Below, in pieces: positions 22,268 to 29,906 of a DNA stretch of 64,000 bases. The stretch lies in the UHGV virus genome UHGV-0167591; one strand, given 5' to 3'. The stretch is from a virus. Under the pieces are notes generated by a model. The model made no database searches, was not told the DNA's origin, and saw only the letters and a list, made by a program, of their open reading frames with translations. Made by a program: the position numbers and the translations under genes. The stretch's first letter is position 1. The number at the start of each line of letters is the position of its first letter.

Positions 22268-22849
22268 ATGGCTCCTATAGCTTATGGGGTTTACAGCCAG
22301 GCTGACGGTGTATCGCCATATCTGAAAGTTACTTTAACGAACTCTCAGTACCAGGTTACCGGATATATCAGCCAGGGAGCGGCAATGAACATGGCCCAGA
22401 ATTGGGAAGCGCCGTTTACCGGTATGTCCATGGGATCTGTTTCTGGTGCTCTGGGTGGTTTTGTGCAAGTAGGTACTGAAACAACGTCAGTTGCCCGTTG
22501 GAATAGCTTAATGGTTTGGGAAGGGGGGACACCGCCGACGTTCACGCTGCCCGTAACTTTCATTGCTTTGAACAATCCATTCATTGAAGTTTCAGGCGCT
22601 ATAGCCGCGTTGACAGCCATGATTAGCCCGGAACTAAAAGCGGCCAATGTTGGCGGTCGAATCCCGGAGCGTGTGACGCTAAACATTGGTCGCCGGATCA
22701 ACATCACCGATGTCGCCATCCAGGACTTAAGTTTTGATCTCGATGCGCCAAGGGACAGTAATGGATATTTCCTGAAAAACACCGTCAACCTCCAGTTGAC
22801 CGGTTCTTCGATATATAACAGCTCCGATATTGTTCGGGCGTTCCAGTAA
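22268..22849 (+). CDS. tail tube-like protein (tentative)
   Basis: 193-aa ORF downstream of the sheath gene. Confidence 0.4.
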   Translation: MAPIAYGVYSQADGVSPYLKVTLTNSQYQVTGYISQGAAMNMAQNWEAPFTGMSMGSVSGALGGFVQVGTETTSVARWNSLMVWEGGTPPTFTLPVTFIALNNPFIEVSGAIAALTAMISPELKAANVGGRIPERVTLNIGRRINITDVAIQDLSFDLDAPRDSNGYFLKNTVNLQLTGSSIYNSSDIVRAFQ

Positions 22850-22860
22850 AAGGATTTTAT

Positions 22861-23370
22861 ATGGGGCACAATAACACTAAGGGAAACAGTAAATTTATTA
22901 AGGGCCGCTATACTGCCAACGCGGCCAAAGGCGAACGACTGGTATCTTCTGAATTCCAGCTCACTTTTGCAGGCTATGAAGATATCAGTGTACTTGTTCG
23001 TACGTCGCAAATCCCTGAAATGACTCGCGAGGATGTGGAGGACTATGGTCCGAATGGTGTCAAGTTCAACCAGCACGGTCCAATTCGAAACTCTGGGGAA
23101 ATCCAGGTCCAGTGCGTGGAGACTATCGAAGGCGATATTCTTCAGTTCATTAAAGATCGCATTGCGGCGAAGGACTATGTTGATATCACGATGGCTGCGA
23201 CCCCTGAATCCAAATCTTCCGGGGTTAACGCTGTGACAAAAGCTGCTACAACAATTGAAATGTTGGACTGCAAAATCTACAGTGATGCAATCGACTTTAG
23301 TACCGAAGATGTGACTGCCGCTGTGCGTCCGTCACTTCGTATCGTCTACAACTGGATTGAGTGGGATTAA
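22861..23370 (+). CDS. tail protein (tentative)
   Basis: 169-aa ORF, last gene before a strong terminator. Confidence 0.4.
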   Translation: MGHNNTKGNSKFIKGRYTANAAKGERLVSSEFQLTFAGYEDISVLVRTSQIPEMTREDVEDYGPNGVKFNQHGPIRNSGEIQVQCVETIEGDILQFIKDRIAAKDYVDITMAATPESKSSGVNAVTKAATTIEMLDCKIYSDAIDFSTEDVTAAVRPSLRIVYNWIEWD

Positions 23371-23388
23371 GAGTCATCCCTTGTATTT

Positions 23389-23411
23389 TAAAGCTCCTTC
23401 GGGAGCTTTTT
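23389..23411 (+). terminator. rho-independent terminator
   Basis: aaagctccttcgggagctttttt. Confidence 0.65.
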
Positions 23412-23453
23412 TGTGCTTAAATTATGCCGGTATAGATAGATTTTGAGCATGTA

Positions 23454-23750
23454 ATGGAAATTGATTTCTCATACTCTCCTGAGACGATAGAAAGAAGATT
23501 CGAAATAATTGGATGCATAACTATTTCAGATGAGCATTATTGGATTCTCTATGATGCCAATACATGGTTATGTGCCTTAGCAGAATGTCAGCCATCGTTA
23601 TGTGTAGGGGAGGGGGCTTTTCGACATAAGGTGCTGGCTACACTTGAAGTGAACACGTTACGATATTGGTGTGTAGAAATACTTAGTGATAACAAAGAAT
23701 TGCATTTATTATTGCTGAATAAGTGTGCTTCTCTGCGCAGAAAAGCATGA
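23454..23750 (+). CDS. hypothetical 98-aa protein in the AT-rich island
   Basis: Isolated ORF followed by a long hairpin at 23876-23916. Confidence 0.3.
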   Translation: MEIDFSYSPETIERRFEIIGCITISDEHYWILYDANTWLCALAECQPSLCVGEGAFRHKVLATLEVNTLRYWCVEILSDNKELHLLLLNKCASLRRKA

Positions 23751-23914
23751 GAAAACCCAACCGCTCTCCCGAATTATCAGAAGAATATGTGCGGAAAGTT
23801 ATAGCTAGCTATTGAAAAGCTAAAGTAGATCGGTTAGAGTTGCCTTACTCATCTACCATGTGTAGAAAGAGCGATCGAACCCGATACATAGCAATATGTG
23901 TCGGGTTCAGCTTT

Positions 23915-24394
23915 TTATGTCCCAAGTGCTCTTTTTCTGCTTTGTTTGAGTGTTCTGATTTTACTGTCATAGGTTACAACATAGGCTGTTTTGAGAAGCC
24001 AATAGTCTCTACGTGCGGATAGCACAACAACGTAGTTTTCACACTCATTCCAGATTACCCACTCTTCAGTTGGTCCTCGTCTTTCAGACCAACATGATAT
24101 ATCGCAATGGTTATAATTCCTTATCATATGCGCGATCCAGCGAATTCGCTTGCACCGTTCAAGATCGGGTATACGTTCTTCTTCTATTTTTCCCTCTGAT
24201 ACTAAATGCCAAAATCCGAATTCTTTCCCATCATATTCCGGTGAATAACGTAATCGAACAGGGAGACCCTTAAACGTTATATTAGAGATTAAAATATCTT
24301 CTCTAACAACATCATATACATCGTCTATATACTCTTGCCAACTTCCATTGAAGTACAATAAATCTGGCATTTGAAGCATCAACGAGCCTCCCAC
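23915..24394 (-). CDS. hypothetical protein, distal gene of the AT-rich cassette (P1 rlfB position)
   Basis: 159-aa ORF overlapping the upstream gene by 16 nt; very low G+C. Confidence 0.45.
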   Translation of the reverse strand: MGGSLMLQMPDLLYFNGSWQEYIDDVYDVVREDILISNITFKGLPVRLRYSPEYDGKEFGFWHLVSEGKIEEERIPDLERCKRIRWIAHMIRNYNHCDISCWSERRGPTEEWVIWNECENYVVVLSARRDYWLLKTAYVVTYDSKIRTLKQSRKRALGT

Positions 24395-25083
24395 ACGAAA
24401 ATATTAAATTTACTTTCTGTTGGAAGAGTGCTTTTTAGTAACTCCCTGTTTGTATGTGATTTTATCCTATTTATGACTTGGATTTTTCCCGCGTTGCTAT
24501 TCATTCCTCGATGAACGTAGCCTAACGCACCAATGAAAAGATCCGTTAGCTGCAATTGTTGCACTTCATGAGATCGTATATGTTGAATTCTGTTTATCGA
24601 CTCATGATTGTAATCATAGCGATCATTGTGAAGAACCCCTCTTAATTTCTCAATTTTTTCAATACCTAAAGTATCTTTTATATCTAGGTAGATATTGTAT
24701 GTGTTGTTACTTTCTATTATGTTTTTTAAGACATAAAAAAACATCTTATAATAGAAAGTATTATGATCTTGATGGAATCGAGCATGGTCCAGTTGCTCTT
24801 TATCAGGAACAACAACACCTCTAAAGCGCAATGCTGGGTTGCTGAAGAAGTAATCTACGACATCTAAGTAAAATTCAACTTTGGACGCAGATACTTTAGT
24901 CCACTTGATTTCGAAATCAGGTTTTAGATTGTGTTTTAATTTTAATTCCTTGATATCTCTAGCAATTTTTTTTGTGATAGTGCCAGGGCACCAAAGCGCA
25001 CCCAATACCATGACTTTATTATGATCATTTAGTAGGTGACAGGATTCATCGCAGAATACATTAAATGTTCTTCGGTTCAACAT
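24379..25083 (-). CDS. DUF3800-like protein (P1 rlfA position)
   Basis: 234 aa with N-terminal FCDESCH motif and NIYLDIKD / QLTDLFIG segments recalled from DUF3800-family proteins; very low G+C. Confidence 0.45.
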   Translation of the reverse strand: MLNRRTFNVFCDESCHLLNDHNKVMVLGALWCPGTITKKIARDIKELKLKHNLKPDFEIKWTKVSASKVEFYLDVVDYFFSNPALRFRGVVVPDKEQLDHARFHQDHNTFYYKMFFYVLKNIIESNNTYNIYLDIKDTLGIEKIEKLRGVLHNDRYDYNHESINRIQHIRSHEVQQLQLTDLFIGALGYVHRGMNSNAGKIQVINRIKSHTNRELLKSTLPTESKFNIFVWEAR

Positions 25084-25234
25084 GTTAACTCCACTTATTG
25101 TTAGGTAGAATTGTCCGTTAGTTGTTTATTAATTGCAATAATGGGACGTCCAGTTTTGGCAACTGTGTCCTCTTACCAAGACGCCTATGAGTTCGCCTCA
25201 TGGCAAACTAGAAGTGTTGAAAGTATGCATGGTT

Positions 25235-25253
25235 CTAATTAGAGCAATTTATT
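25235..25253. promoter_or_regulatory. partial C1 operator-like site just downstream of the repL stop
   Basis: ctaattagagcaatttatt contains the attgctctaat core (11 of 17 consensus positions). Confidence 0.35.
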
Positions 25254-26097
25254 AACCTCTGAATCCTGCCGGTATACCCCATTGTTCGTTATCTTTATTT
25301 TTGGCTAAAACCGCATTAAGAGCTTCGTTTACCGTCATGCAATGCGGCAGATTATCGAAGTTTGATATCCCACCAATATCAGGAGAACGCTTGTTCTTCA
25401 GGTAAGCATATTTCCGCGCTGCCGCCTCTACTTTCTGCTTGAACTCATGTTTTTGAGCGCGTTTTTTGGATAACCGCAGATTGTCAGCCTTTGCTTTTGC
25501 CTCAGCGATCCATGAAGTCAATTTTTTGAGTCTGGTCGTTCCGGCACCGCCGGAAACTGATCTTTTTGTTTTTTTAACTTGTGACTTCTTATTCTTTATT
25601 GCCACGTCATCCTGACAGGGGGAGGGGGTATCATTTTGACATGGGGGTGTGGATAAAAAATCAAATAAAGCCAATGTCTTAGCGAGAACAGCTTTAACCT
25701 TGGTTGCGGCTGAAGAGATCTTTAATTTGCTTTCAGTCAGCGCGTTTTTAGCTTGTTGTGCGAAGGCCAAAAAGGATGGTGTAAACCGGTACAGGTTAGC
25801 GCGGCGTTCACGGTGATCGCCGATAACAATCTCTACAGACAGGATTCCTTTGTTTACAGCTTCACGGAATGCACGAACGACGGTTGATTGACTATAACCA
25901 GTTTCTGCCGCGATCAGGCGGTGAGGCTTGTGAATGAAGTATTCACTGGTTGTAGCCGCGAGATTTGCACATTGCGACAGGATATACCCGGCGCTACGGG
26001 ATAGACCGGAGTGTGTTACAAAGCAGGCCAATTCATAGCCAGAAAAAGTAAAATCGCTCATCGTTATACAGCTCAGGAAAGTGACTTTAGCCAGCAT
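25252..26097 (-). CDS. repL: lytic replication initiator RepL
   Basis: 281 aa directly downstream of kilA in the same operon; basic C-terminal half. Confidence 0.7.
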   Translation of the reverse strand: MLAKVTFLSCITMSDFTFSGYELACFVTHSGLSRSAGYILSQCANLAATTSEYFIHKPHRLIAAETGYSQSTVVRAFREAVNKGILSVEIVIGDHRERRANLYRFTPSFLAFAQQAKNALTESKLKISSAATKVKAVLAKTLALFDFLSTPPCQNDTPSPCQDDVAIKNKKSQVKKTKRSVSGGAGTTRLKKLTSWIAEAKAKADNLRLSKKRAQKHEFKQKVEAAARKYAYLKNKRSPDIGGISNFDNLPHCMTVNEALNAVLAKNKDNEQWGIPAGFRG

Positions 26098-26126
26098 TAC
26101 AATGCTGGTGGTTCTTACTACGTCTG

Positions 26127-26927
26127 TTAGCGCGTTGCCGCGACAGGTACCAGCACACCAGCATCAAGCAATCGCTTCATCAGCCACTGCTGACCTTTGC
26201 CGGTTATACGAGTCGTGAAAGAAATCCTGCTTCCATTGCTTGTATCGATCACGGTTTCTTTGAGGGTGAAATACCCACGGGATATGTATTCTTGTTTTGG
26301 GACGTTCCTGCGCTCACCGGTTGCGATCAGAATTCCGTTATCACGCAACCAGGTGAAGAGATAGTTTTGGCCCAGGCCGAGCACTTTGGCATAGTTGCCG
26401 ATTAGAACCCCGCTGGCGGTAGCAACGCGTTCGGCAAATTCGACTTTAGGGGCATCCAGAAGCATTTTTTGCTCCAGCCGTTGCTTTTGCTCTGCCAGGT
26501 CGGCAGCCAAACGGAGAGCTTCAGGGAGACTCTGCGGAATAGCAGGTTGTAATCTTCCGGCTCGATAGTCGATAAATGTCTGGTTTACCTTCAGCCGAAA
26601 CGCGGGAGAAATCCAGCCTGCGTACTCCACAGCGAGCAATTCATGGGCAAAAGTGCCGCCGCCACGGCCTTCGAACGAAACTATGCAATTCTGCATAGTT
26701 TCTTTTTCCAGCTCTTCGATGAGCTGTTTGGCTGACAGCGTTCTTAGCCATTGAGCTGGCGCTTTATGGGCACCGAGTCCGCTCGCTCTGTGTAGAGCAT
26801 TAAGGTTGTAACGGCCAGCGCGGTCGGTCGTAATTTCAACACCACAAATAACAGGCAGAGTGGTTGAAGGATCGACATTTTGATGAAGGTTTGATATATT
26901 CATATCCGCATTGAATGTTTGTTGCAT
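26127..26927 (-). CDS. kilA: KilA (antirepressor-family C-terminal domain protein)
   Basis: 266 aa; C-terminal segment (PEALRLAADLAEQKQRLEQKMLLDAPKVEFAERV...) parallels the Ant C-terminus. Confidence 0.75.
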   Translation of the reverse strand: MQQTFNADMNISNLHQNVDPSTTLPVICGVEITTDRAGRYNLNALHRASGLGAHKAPAQWLRTLSAKQLIEELEKETMQNCIVSFEGRGGGTFAHELLAVEYAGWISPAFRLKVNQTFIDYRAGRLQPAIPQSLPEALRLAADLAEQKQRLEQKMLLDAPKVEFAERVATASGVLIGNYAKVLGLGQNYLFTWLRDNGILIATGERRNVPKQEYISRGYFTLKETVIDTSNGSRISFTTRITGKGQQWLMKRLLDAGVLVPVAATR

Positions 26928-26996
26928 TTTTTCTCCAAATTTGCATCAACCTTCAATCACCAGCTCGAAATGGTGATTCTTTGCACTTAGAAAACG

Positions 26997-27014
26997 AAAT
27001 TTATTAGAGCAAAT
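26997..27014. promoter_or_regulatory. C1 operator upstream of kilA-repL (Op53-like)
   Basis: aaatttattagagcaaat: 16 of 17 match to the reverse complement of ATTGCTCTAATAAATTT. Confidence 0.6.
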
Positions 27015-27055
27015 TTTTCCAGTCCGATCCAGATCGGGTTGGTCGATCTGCTCAG

Positions 27056-27086
27056 AAACCTGCCAGTTAGCTGGCAGGTTTTTTTG
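27056..27086 (+). terminator. rho-independent terminator on the plus strand, antisense to the kilA leader
   Basis: aaacctgccagttagctggcaggttttttt. Confidence 0.55.
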
Positions 27087-27211
27087 TATAAGGCGTTTTT
27101 CAATGTGGATTTGTGGCTGGCTAAAACGGAAAAGGCCACAGGTTTTACCCTGTGGCCTGTTCGGGCGCAACGCGCTGCTGTTACACTGCGAACTAACGCC
27201 CTTCAATGTTG

Positions 27212-27328
27212 TTATGCAATGTGGAGAAGTGAGGCAATCACTGATGCCAACACAGAACTTGAAGCTCCGATGATGACAGGAACAATGATGTTGGTCACAA
27301 TCCACTTGCAAGCTTTTTGAAGAGTCAT
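27212..27328 (-). CDS. 38-aa hydrophobic micro-ORF (possible small membrane peptide)
   Basis: MTLQKACKWIVTNIIVPVIIGASSSVLASVIASLLHIA; GGAG 7 nt upstream of the ATG. Confidence 0.3.
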   Translation of the reverse strand: MTLQKACKWIVTNIIVPVIIGASSSVLASVIASLLHIA

Positions 27329-27394
27329 TACGAAGCTCCGCACACTTGCAACAGCAACTGCTTGCGGCTATCCTCTTGTTGATCAGACATAAGG

Positions 27395-27445
27395 AATGCC
27401 CTCGCTGGTTGCCTCCATGCAACGTTGTGGCGAGGGTTTTTTCTG
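27395..27445 (+). terminator. terminator-like structured hairpin (plus strand)
   Basis: gccctcgc...gcgaggg stem followed by ttttttct. Confidence 0.4.
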
Positions 27446-27566
27446 TCTGGAGGCTACGCATCCAGGAGTTCATAACCCCCGCATAACGTTGCGCCTCCCC
27501 TGAAAAACAGGGTTGGGCATATCGTACACATGCCTGTAATTTATGGCAAATCCTGGTCTGAATACG

Positions 27567-28613
27567 TTAAGACAAGGACGCCACTGGTTTTAACAAACCA
27601 GCATCAAGTAGCTTGCGAGTTAACCACTGCTGGCCTTTACCCGTTAATTGGGGCGTCAGCCGTATCTGGTAGCCATTTTCATCATCCAGCACCACTTCTT
27701 TCACCGTGAAATACCCGGCGTTGATGTACTGTTGGCGCGGTACGTTTTTGCGCGCTCCAAAAGCCATGAGAATGCCATTCTGGCGCAACCATGAGAAAAG
27801 GGCGTTTTGCTTAAGTCCAACGACCTTTGCAAAGTTCCCGATCAGGATTCCATTGGCCACTGATACCCGGTCGGCAAAATCGACTTTAGGGGCTGCGGCC
27901 ACCAGCTGTTGTTCCAACTGCATTTTCTGTTCTGCTAACTCGGCAGCCAGGCGTAGGGCTTCTGGTAATGTCTGGGGGATCGATGGGGTAGGGGAGTTTG
28001 CCTGCTGTAATTCTTCCAGTTTGTCGATCAGCGAACGGCGGACCGCTTTCGATTCGCGCGCGGCGACTCGCAGGGCTTGTTTGTAGGTCATGGTTATGAC
28101 AACCATAGGCGTACCGCCACCTGGCGGCACGGTTGCACTTTTTGTGTAACCGTCCTCACCTTCTAATTCGTCGAGTATTTTTTCGATGAATTTGTTGTTC
28201 CGAACCTCTGGTTCCCCACATAACTTACGCGCTTCATTGACCATCTTTAACAGTGTCAGGCTGTCGATTGTGTCTCCGGTGGTGGGGATGACATTCACGG
28301 CTGGTGCTGGCGTTGCTGAAGCAACAGGTGCTGGTTTTTCAACATTTAAATTATTACCGGTCATTCTATGTGCCTCCTTTCTCATTTCTGCTGCCACTGT
28401 TGCGTAACGTAGACGTCCTTGTTCAATCAAATAATCCCTGATCTCGGCTATCAGTAGCCTGTTGATCACAGCCTTATCTGTTCGGGTATAAAAACGTCTG
28501 GTTATCATGAAATAGTTAGCAATTGCGCCGGGGATCTCCCGTGTCGGCATACAGGTAGTATGCAAGGCGATCGCTTCGGCTATTTCATTACGGGTGACGA
28601 GAGGTGTTTTCAT
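27567..28613 (-). CDS. ant: antirepressor Ant
   Basis: 348 aa; C-terminal Ant/KilA-type domain (QTLPEALRLAAELAEQKMQLEQQLVAAAPKVDFADRV); start overlaps the icd stop. Confidence 0.8.
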   Translation of the reverse strand: MKTPLVTRNEIAEAIALHTTCMPTREIPGAIANYFMITRRFYTRTDKAVINRLLIAEIRDYLIEQGRLRYATVAAEMRKEAHRMTGNNLNVEKPAPVASATPAPAVNVIPTTGDTIDSLTLLKMVNEARKLCGEPEVRNNKFIEKILDELEGEDGYTKSATVPPGGGTPMVVITMTYKQALRVAARESKAVRRSLIDKLEELQQANSPTPSIPQTLPEALRLAAELAEQKMQLEQQLVAAAPKVDFADRVSVANGILIGNFAKVVGLKQNALFSWLRQNGILMAFGARKNVPRQQYINAGYFTVKEVVLDDENGYQIRLTPQLTGKGQQWLTRKLLDAGLLKPVASLS

Positions 28614-28965: not shown

Positions 28966-29145
28966 GGGCGTAACGCGGTTTTACGGACACAAAAATACCG
29001 CAATATCGGATATCTGCGGTTGTCCGCACTAACATTCAGGCTGCTAAACCCGGTCGCAGAATTTGCTACGACGGCGGAACTATAAGCCTGAACGATTAAA
29101 AGGTCAATATGATGCGAAAAGATAGCATTCGCGACTTAAAAATAC

Positions 29146-29160
29146 AAATTTATTAGAGCA
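29146..29160. promoter_or_regulatory. C1 operator-like site in the immunity-region promoter
   Basis: aaatttattagagca: 15 of 17 match to the reverse-complement consensus. Confidence 0.5.
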
Positions 29161-29231
29161 TTAATTGTATAGTAAATACACAAATGGATCTAATAACCTC
29201 TTTTTTTTAAAGGCGAAAATATGTACCCTAA

Positions 29232-29906
29232 ATGGGTTGTAAGGCAGGTGAGGTTATAATGAGAAAACTATTATTACCGTTATTATTTATGGCTGGGACT
29301 GTTAATGCAGCATCAAGTGTAAAGGAGATTTGTACCGATTATACGAAATACCTTGGGCACGTTTACGGCTTTGCTGTCAGTCAAGACGAATCCATGCGCA
29401 AGAAGTTACTGTCAGATATGAAACGTCTTAAACTTTCTGAAGCGATGGTGCAGCAAGAACTATATAAAGTCGCAACCAACGAAAATGCTAAATATCAATA
29501 TTCTCGCCTATTAAATCCCGACGCAAACGAGATCAATCGAAGCACTTTCGATTATATGGTAAAGGCATGCGAAACCGCTCCTGATTTTGCTATCCCTAGC
29601 TGGGGTGTGCTGGTGGCGAGCAATGCCGTTAATAAAGAAGATGTTGGAAGAAATGGCATTGACTCAATCAGAAATGCCCCAGGAATGCGCCATCAAAGCG
29701 TGCAGAGTACGCTTGAAGAGCGGGCCAGGGGGCCGGGTACAAACTCCCCAATGGGAAACCTCTCACCAGAGGAATTGCAAGAGTATAACCAACGGATGGA
29801 GCAGTATGAGAAAGCGGCACGCGAACAAATGGAACAACAAAAGAACGGCTCACTTAATACCTTCCAGCAAGGTTTAAAGGCGCTTAATTTACCATATGAA
29901 TGGTGA
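29232..29906 (+). CDS. secreted superinfection-exclusion-type protein (P1 Sim-like)
   Basis: Signal peptide MRKLLLPLLFMAGTVNAASS; internal segment IRNAPGMRHQSVQSTLEERARGPGT shared with Sit. Confidence 0.5.
   Translation: MGCKAGEVIMRKLLLPLLFMAGTVNAASSVKEICTDYTKYLGHVYGFAVSQDESMRKKLLSDMKRLKLSEAMVQQELYKVATNENAKYQYSRLLNPDANEINRSTFDYMVKACETAPDFAIPSWGVLVASNAVNKEDVGRNGIDSIRNAPGMRHQSVQSTLEERARGPGTNSPMGNLSPEELQEYNQRMEQYEKAAREQMEQQKNGSLNTFQQGLKALNLPYEW

Follow-up and report, generated by a model that had tools for sequence, protein, structure and literature searches.

A conserved small RNA gene adjoins rlfA and rlfB of P1-like phages and may form a three-part defence module with them

The window analysed here is the whole 64,000-nucleotide (nt) stretch of the virus genome UHGV-0167591, and the subject within it is the gene pair rlfA and rlfB together with a small RNA gene that adjoins rlfB. 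Across 23400-25300 the window is 98.1% identical to phage P7 and 97.8% identical to phage P1, where the pair, named rapA/rapB in P7 and rlfA/rlfB in P1, also lies between repL and pmgF. The genes are those of the window, with no structural difference and with an RNA element that is 100% identical, but the reference records annotate the two coding sequences alone, described as 'possibly associated with lytic replication', without an RNA gene. An earlier sequence-only reading of the window had likewise drawn a cassette of two minus-strand open reading frames (ORFs), at 24379-25083 (234 residues, with the motif FCDESCH at residues 10-16) and at 23915-24394 (159 residues from a GTG start). Its coordinates are right, but its two-gene view missed the third part of the module. 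The listed GTG at 24394 has an alternative in an ATG at 24379, which yields 154 residues (MLQMPD...). This ATG overlaps the rlfA stop codon in the sequence TGATG, giving a gene overlap of 1 nt, is preceded by the Shine-Dalgarno sequence GGGAGG and is the start used in the P1 record, and it is therefore likely to be the true start of rlfB. The parts of the module are as follows.

24379..25083, minus strand: rlfA (rapA in P7), encoding a 234-residue DUF3800 protein
23915..24379, minus strand: rlfB (rapB in P7), encoding a 154-residue partner, translationally coupled to rlfA
23846..23918, plus strand: small RNA gene, unannotated, tail-to-tail with rlfB; probable transcript about 23847-23916 (about 70 nt)
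23812..23840, plus strand: predicted sigma-70 promoter of the small RNA, -35 TTGAAA at 23812-23817, a 17-nt spacer and -10 TAGAGT at 23835-23840
23848..23871, plus strand: 5' hairpin of the RNA, CUCAUCUACCAUGUGUAGAAAGAG, with a 3-bp stem, a 1x2 internal loop, a 5-bp stem and a CAUGU loop
23877..23916, plus strand: intrinsic terminator of the RNA, a 14-bp stem-loop at 23877-23908 and a U tract at 23912-23916

The RNA gene came to light when the DNA just past the rlfB stop codon was compared among all loci, which gave 1,142 significant pairwise matches with up to 96% identity over 24-40 nt between different phyla. This DNA is laid out as a variable GC-rich hairpin followed by a near-invariant block, and on the strand opposite rlfAB the consensus reads GUCUCAUCUACCAUGUGUAGAAGGAGCAUUCGA, then a stem-loop, then UCAGCYUUUU. 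RNAalifold recovers the 5' hairpin and the terminator hairpin with compensatory changes in 18 of their 22 pairs. Paired cells make up 94.3% of the MAFFT alignment, which has a covariation score of 0.452; shuffled alignments give 0.185 (none of 500 as high), and sliding the pairing partners gives at most 0.135. The covariation recurs in an independent set, in which viral and orphan copies were aligned to the model. Within the terminator stem 13 of the 14 pairs carry compensatory changes, while the 5' hairpin is near-invariant in sequence across phyla, with 5 of its 8 pairs covarying, helix 1 paired in 99% and a loop that takes up an extra inserted hairpin in some loci. The DNA AAAGCTGA is kept although the C-terminus of RlfB varies. 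G.U pairs number 106 on the plus (RNA) strand and 11 on the opposite strand, and only on the RNA strand does a U tract lie 3' of the stem. The window copy folds with a minimum free energy of -29.8 kcal/mol (z -6.9). Structure, covariation and the asymmetry of G.U pairs and U tract thus place the RNA on the strand opposite rlfAB, and it is on this RNA that structural selection acts.

Signals for independent transcription accompany the structure. Hexamers resembling TTGACA and TAnnnT stand at a fixed distance upstream of the RNA in 77 loci from many phyla, and a promoter and terminator scan of the window independently recovers both the RNA promoter hexamers and the terminator at 23877-23908. The end of the -10 hexamer lies 7 nt upstream of the conserved CUCAUC, and the terminator U tract overlaps the rlfB stop codon (23915-23917). 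No feature is annotated at the element in the P1 record, and Rfam 15, which contains the DUF3800-I and DUF3800-IX models, has no match to it at E <=10 in window positions 22500-27500 or at E <=1 in five other loci. Upstream of rlfA the sequence is conserved among close relatives only, and neither a second element nor a transposon end was found there. Two other readings of the element were set aside. A tRNA-like reading of GGTTCGATC was dropped, as ARAGORN gives no tRNA or tmRNA, and the plus-strand ORF that runs over the RNA (23840-24022, 60 residues) was rejected as coding on account of indels of 1-2 nt or variable length and hairpin insertions in the loop.

A covariance model of the RNA (R1), whose E-values are rough, was searched against loci anchored on RlfA, on RlfB or in Escherichia coli. 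It matches the window at 23846-23918 on the plus strand with 80.9 bits (E 3e-18, rough). The element lies beside rlfB in 80 of 80 genome loci and also in P1, there is no other strong match in 1.05 Mb, and two P1-like phages without rlfAB have no match. Viral loci were taken from IMG/VR contigs, and where these are anchored on RlfA the RNA is found in 58 of 61, the misses being contig ends. Weaker second matches occur beside the main copy in three loci only (L078 8539-8593, L057 8533-8599 and L007 8591-8666) and could have arisen by tandem duplication or be decayed remnants. The fusion of rlfA into very long ORFs of high G+C by the ORF caller in L057 and L078 is probably an artefact. On three viral contigs (L106 6561-6631, L108 5310-5379 and L111 6545-6614) the RNA gene is flipped, so that it lies on the same strand as rlfAB, and these copies retain a perfect TTGACA-17-TATACT promoter and their own terminator. 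Because the flipped copies keep both signals, the RNA is to all appearances an independent gene whose product can presumably act in trans. A pure cis-antisense role was rejected on the same three loci.

Copies of the RNA also occur without the two proteins. The 73-nt RNA matches 61 places on E. coli chromosomes, 53 of them at 80-90% identity. Orphan examples (L196 7000-7072; L197, L198 and L199 4000-4072; and L200, NZ_CP123240.1 1064000-1088500) score 62-71 bits with R1 and are 83-86% identical to the P1 copy. Six-frame searches of the four orphan loci inspected found no remnant of RlfA or RlfB. The orphan RNA lies at the far end of integrated satellite-like islands. One such island carries an integrase at tRNA-Gly, antirepressors, a DUF927 primase, SSB, a ProQ/FinO protein and PerC, along with three large ORFs without a Pfam family, while another carries a RepA helicase, a major capsid protein and a head-decoration protein. 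The RNA is the sole part common to P1 and these islands, and its terminator stem shows compensatory changes between them. The arrangement is present in about 56 of 5,426 complete E. coli genomes and fits a trans-acting RNA.

For RlfA, the suspected relationship to DUF3800 was borne out by profile search. The protein matches Pfam DUF3800 (PF12686) with 54.2 bits against a cut-off of 21 (E 3.5e-14) over profile positions 1-148 of 149. Homologues share 52-66% identity across many phyla, and the residues invariant among 28 of them are D12-E13 (in CDESCH), D134 and D137 (in DIKD) and Q178-x-x-D181. DUF3800 proteins are marked by an N-terminal DE and a C-terminal QxxD motif (PMC7736814), and RlfA has both. 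We describe it as having a putative RNase H2-like fold with acidic residues in a DEDD-like arrangement. At the level of sequence RlfA does not join RNase HII, since Pfam gives DUF3800 only and a PDB sequence search is without match. Beside the DE pair lies a cluster of invariant or nearly invariant cysteines and histidines (C11, C15, H16, C32, H100 and H107). RNase HII lacks such a cluster, and in RlfA it may bind a metal. RlfB, the obligate partner of RlfA, represents an orphan family. The family comprises 1,791 clusters at 50% identity, and among the 150 best-scoring of these nearly all members are 150-190 residues long with no evident domain fusion. Pfam matches none of the 25 RlfB homologues searched, NCBIfam matches neither RlfA nor RlfB, and PDB sequence searches with both proteins and with an RlfB profile return chance-level matches only. 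The labels attached to RlfB, 'oxidoreductase' (NCBI/RefSeq) and 'replication protein' (RefSeq, PHROG 16230), are backed by none of these searches. Both proteins match the PADLOC candidate system PDC-M04, RlfA as PDC-M04A (E 1e-95) and RlfB as PDC-M04B (E 5e-52), with the genes side by side and overlapping by 1 nt. The earlier statement that neither protein has an assignable function therefore stands in part. No paper assigning a function to rlfA or rlfB was found in the literature, but the pair had already been named (rlfAB) and catalogued (PDC-M04), which that statement overlooked.

Beyond P1 the pair is widespread. Relatives of RlfB are found in 477 species genomes, from phyla that include Proteobacteria, Nitrospirota, Planctomycetota, Chloroflexota, Bacteroidota, Cyanobacteria, Acidobacteriota and Saccharibacteria, and relatives of RlfA are encoded on 238 viral contigs. 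The order rlfA then rlfB, overlapping or almost abutting, holds in 79 of 80 genome loci, the exception being a contig end, and RlfB follows RlfA in 62 of 63 viral loci. Neighbouring genes, called by a simple greedy ORF method, show an association with type I restriction. In about 79 loci the two genes upstream include the methylase hsdM in 28 and hsdS in 25, and the two genes downstream include hsdR in 17. Roughly one quarter to one third of the bacterial loci have rlfAB between hsdS and hsdR within a type I restriction operon. The order hsdM-hsdS-rlfA-rlfB-hsdR is common, with hsdS and rlfA overlapping by 4 nt (for example L013, L022, L046 and L058). Further neighbours are SIR2, PLD-helicase, AAA_15/21, RhuM and Csy2, and the bacterial neighbourhood of rlfAB is that of defence islands. 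The layout of a defence-type pair, which had been proposed from the P1-like window, thus finds apparent support in homologues within restriction operons and defence islands and in the match of both proteins to PDC-M04. In a Saccharibacteria locus a LOOT RNA (Rfam RF03000, 71.5 bits; L029 3400-3513) lies about 5 kb from rlfAB and is probably unrelated.

Among P1-like elements the pair behaves as cargo. The rlfA-rlfB-pmgF segment is one of eight variable low-GC regions in P1-like phage-plasmids (PMC9603915), rlfA-rlfB is replaced in several P1-like elements (PMC6906374), and both genes are non-essential for P1 by CRISPR interference (CRISPRi; PMC10695390). The cassette is present in 101 of 516 repL-bearing PLSDB plasmids (about 20%), in 8 of 19 phage records that match the end of repL, and in 121 of 5,426 complete E. 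coli genomes, nearly always on plasmids. In RCS47 the slot holds an IS605-family transposase and another gene, and in phi456 it is almost empty. As the pair is patchy among repL plasmids, phages and E. coli genomes, it is accessory cargo of a variable slot that lies outside the core lytic replicon, which agrees with the horizontally acquired accessory module envisaged by the sequence-only reading. The plasmid counts and the CRISPRi result likewise place rlfAB outside the lytic replicon. In some P1-like plasmids and viral contigs rlfB is interrupted near residue 80 (NZ_CP045829.1 H34 and H68; L100 and L101 6001-6246). About 8.5 kb separates the RNA gene from the remaining cassette in NZ_CP045829.1, which suggests an insertion within rlfB that leaves rlfA intact.

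Base composition agrees with this status. The cassette has 36.3% G+C against 48.6% for the whole window and is the lowest 1.17-kb stretch in the 64 kb. Only 0.5% of windows of the same size are equally low, every one of them overlapping the rlfAB locus, and the 60 nt at 24661-24720 contain exactly the 14 G+C that had been counted before. A further low-GC patch lies outside the locus at 29000-29450 (0.36-0.37). The low-GC island extends over a neighbouring gene, pmgF.

23454..23750, plus strand: pmgF, annotated in P1; PHROG 7349 (labelled as of unknown function)

pmgF occupies the same low-GC variable slot, from bplB to repL, as rlfAB and is missing along with the pair in RCS47 and phi456. It was not seen in bacterial rlfAB loci and lies outside the conserved module. 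A strong terminator hairpin at 23390-23409 on the plus strand (AAAGCTCCTTCGGGAGCTTT, then a T run), directly 3' of bplB, divides the tail genes from pmgF and matches the 3' end of Rfam STnc130 at a score below the threshold.

The regulatory signals upstream of rlfA may link the pair to the C1 repressor. A partial C1 operator-like site had been noticed between repL and the cassette, and this is Orlf/Op55, a monovalent C1 operator in NC_005856, from which the window differs by one base.

25232..25248, minus strand: homologue of the C1 operator Orlf/Op55, ATTGCTCTAATTAGAAC, directly past the repL stop codon; predicted by homology
25110..25138, minus strand: PrlfA, a weak predicted promoter (TTGCAA-17-GACAAT) in the P1 record; below the threshold of the promoter scan

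Op55 lies upstream of PrlfA, which is predicted about 95 nt downstream of the operator, and simple occlusion of PrlfA by the operator is therefore ruled out. From the arrangement of signals, rlfAB mRNA is likely to arise mainly by transcription running on out of the kilA-repL operon, which C1 controls, and in published RNA-seq data rlfAB behave as early genes. Given the position of the genes behind that operon and Op55, RlfA and RlfB are probably made mainly in lytic development, with the RNA produced from its own promoter. The next terminator-like site on the minus strand lies only at 23749-23770, so that the rlfAB mRNA probably crosses the RNA gene in antisense, and a convergent arrangement of this kind could possibly add an extra cis-antisense layer of control. 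In the neighbouring region KilA and Ant1 (26127-26927 and 27567-28613, minus strand) are clearly alike in their C-terminal halves (...LPEALRLAA-LAEQK...GKGQQWL...LLDAG-L-PVA), and both are annotated as anti-repressors in the reference record.

Several known systems share features with this module. In type III toxin-antitoxin systems such as ToxIN a tandem-repeat RNA antitoxin lies upstream of a single endoRNase toxin, and phage phiTE carries a pseudo-ToxI decoy. This is the working analogy for a nuclease paired with a dedicated abundant RNA, and orphan RNA copies could likewise act as decoys. The rlf RNA is nevertheless a single-copy hairpin gene beside the second of two protein genes and does not belong to that type. 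Nor does the module belong to type I. The RNA overlaps the coding sequence by about 0-3 nt and is co-directional with it in L106, L108 and L111, the proteins are soluble and of 154 and 234 residues rather than a small hydrophobic toxin, and antisense pairing would not require an RNA that is invariant across phyla. PrrC/EcoprrI and RloC are restriction-linked anticodon nucleases with an ABC-ATPase. They resemble the rlf module in providing a nuclease-type accessory between hsdS and hsdR of type I operons, whereas rlf lacks an ABC-ATPase or anticodon-nuclease domain, differs in fold and has an RNA partner. From RNase HII/RNase H2A, RlfA is set apart by the lack of a sequence-level match and by its extra conserved cysteines and histidines.

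Closest in composition is PADLOC PDC-M04, in which both profiles match and the genes are adjacent, but whose definition comprises two proteins without an RNA. Structured RNAs associated with DUF3800 genes, in either orientation to the gene and followed by a Rho-independent terminator, are described in an earlier report (PMC5737381). The DUF3800-I to -XI motifs (Weinberg et al. 2017, PMC5737381) resemble the rlf RNA as structured RNAs beside a DUF3800 gene with a terminator after them, whereas the rlf RNA is bound to one DUF3800 subfamily with RlfB as partner; the comparison that sets it apart covers those motifs that are included in Rfam. Retron type VII combines a reverse transcriptase with DUF3800, and retron DUF3800 proteins have the DE motif without QxxD (PMC7736814). 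The likeness consists of a DUF3800 protein, putatively RNase H2-like, with the DE motif and a dedicated non-coding RNA in a defence-type locus, while RlfA retains QxxD and has RlfB as its partner. No reverse transcriptase is found among the 25 commonest Pfam families of 231 neighbour proteins or in the window locus.

RlfA, RlfB and the RNA are strictly linked, accessory and mobile, and the trio is enriched near restriction and defence genes. Our favoured explanation, to which we assign a probability of roughly 0.5, is that they form a three-part RNA-protein defence or abortive-infection module. The three-part architecture itself is held with high confidence, and a defence or exclusion role is favoured by a small degree. 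In this model RlfA and/or RlfB would bind the invariant 5' hairpin, giving an RNA-protein complex. Abundant RNA from its near-consensus promoter might restrain the nuclease in the manner of an antitoxin or might license it, and of these an antitoxin-like role is offered tentatively. Some disturbance while another phage infects would then release cleavage of nucleic acid, by which the infection would be aborted or the competitor excluded. A bolder form of the model, in which the module represents a new class of three-component immune system, the RNA is antitoxin or sensor of an RNase H2-like nuclease and its partner, and satellites carry orphan RNA decoys, is speculative and on balance doubtful. 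Several points weigh against the defence module. The position of the genes behind C1-controlled signals points to expression in the lytic phase, a pattern unusual for a system that protects the lysogen, and knock-down of rlfA or rlfB leaves P1 plating unchanged (PMC10695390). Binding between RNA and protein is inferred solely from co-occurrence and sequence invariance, the orphan copies indicate that the RNA could have an independent role, and the 'viral' contigs may carry host flanks. PDC-M04 is a candidate system that no paper found mentions, and no experiment on anti-phage activity or toxicity of the pair was found in the literature.

A related explanation, which we consider unlikely, is addiction, with RlfA/RlfB toxic and the RNA a short-lived antitoxin that stabilises the P1 plasmid, restriction operons and islands through post-segregational killing. 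A compact coupled operon next to a separately and strongly promoted small RNA is what such a system looks like, its housing on a plasmid-prophage and in restriction operons that are themselves addictive is suggestive, and the distribution is patchy as though spread by horizontal transfer. Yet P1 already has phd-doc, and about 80% of P1-like plasmids have lost the cassette or carry something else in its place. Insertions interrupt some copies at no apparent cost, and in the flipped loci the RNA is not antisense to the coding region. Defence and addiction are compatible roles. Improbable, in our view, is counter-defence or competition between elements, in which an RNase H-like enzyme and RNA would be aimed at systems of the host or at rival elements that depend on RNA-DNA hybrids or guide RNAs, retrons and CRISPR among them. 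The tie to the early lytic operon and Op55 in P1, the association of DUF3800 domains with type VII retrons and with loci of Cas12a2/a3 and Cas13, and the orphan RNA copies on phage satellites would all accord with it. Most copies are nevertheless chromosomal and co-oriented with hsdMS, with overlapping start and stop codons, which points to a host-side function, and an RNA sequence invariant across phyla argues against a programmable guide.

Low odds are likewise given to the RNA being the true cargo, a regulator of host or phage genes that RlfA and RlfB merely process, stabilise or degrade. Its retention alone on E. coli satellite-like islands, with compensatory changes and without RlfA/RlfB, supports this, as do the ProQ/FinO RNA chaperone encoded by one such island and the putative nuclease fold of RlfA. 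However, outside E. coli, where the loci searched were those anchored on RlfA or RlfB, all RNA copies adjoin rlfAB, a regulator conserved from Saccharibacteria to Proteobacteria would require a universal target, and the defence-island context would be left unexplained. The original annotation of a replication-linked function, from which the PHROG label 'replication protein' derives, would make the pair an accessory of P1 lytic replication. The genes adjoin repL and oriL and are co-regulated with them, an RNase H-like enzyme could process primers or R-loops, and the early-gene behaviour in RNA-seq is in keeping, but this explanation is largely refuted by the absence of the cassette from about 80% of repL plasmids, by its non-essentiality, and by bacterial homologues in restriction operons and islands whose commonest neighbour families are those of restriction-modification and defence. 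Very little probability, finally, attaches to the element being no RNA gene but a terminator that works in both directions, or a DNA site at which a regulator or recombinase acts, where the operon ends. Its position at the operon end, and near the island boundary in the E. coli islands, would suit such a site. The G.U asymmetry of 106 to 11, a promoter conserved at a fixed distance, an invariant 5' hairpin that is dispensable for termination, the retention of promoter and terminator by flipped copies and the lack of a matching repeat at the other end of the module all speak for an RNA gene instead.

What was already known is the gene pair, as P1 rlfAB and as PDC-M04, its AT-rich variable character and the general association of DUF3800 with structured RNA. 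Apparently new are the RNA described here, its obligate tie to the RlfA/RlfB subfamily, its occurrence in P1, the embedding of the module in restriction operons and the orphan copies on satellite-like islands. The genome of P1, among the best-studied phages and a standard laboratory tool, apparently contains a small RNA gene that had escaped annotation and forms part of a module present in many phyla. A two-protein candidate becomes a defined three-part system with experimental handles in a promoter, a hairpin and putative catalytic residues, and the unexplained association of DUF3800 nucleases with structured RNAs is tied to a tractable model. A decoy relation through RNA between phage satellites and P1-like elements is possible. 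If the module is indeed such a three-component immune system, the DUF3800-associated RNAs, which have lacked an explanation since 2017, would for the first time be accounted for in terms of function, and even if the module has no role in defence, the strict three-way linkage and the near-invariant hairpin demand an explanation.

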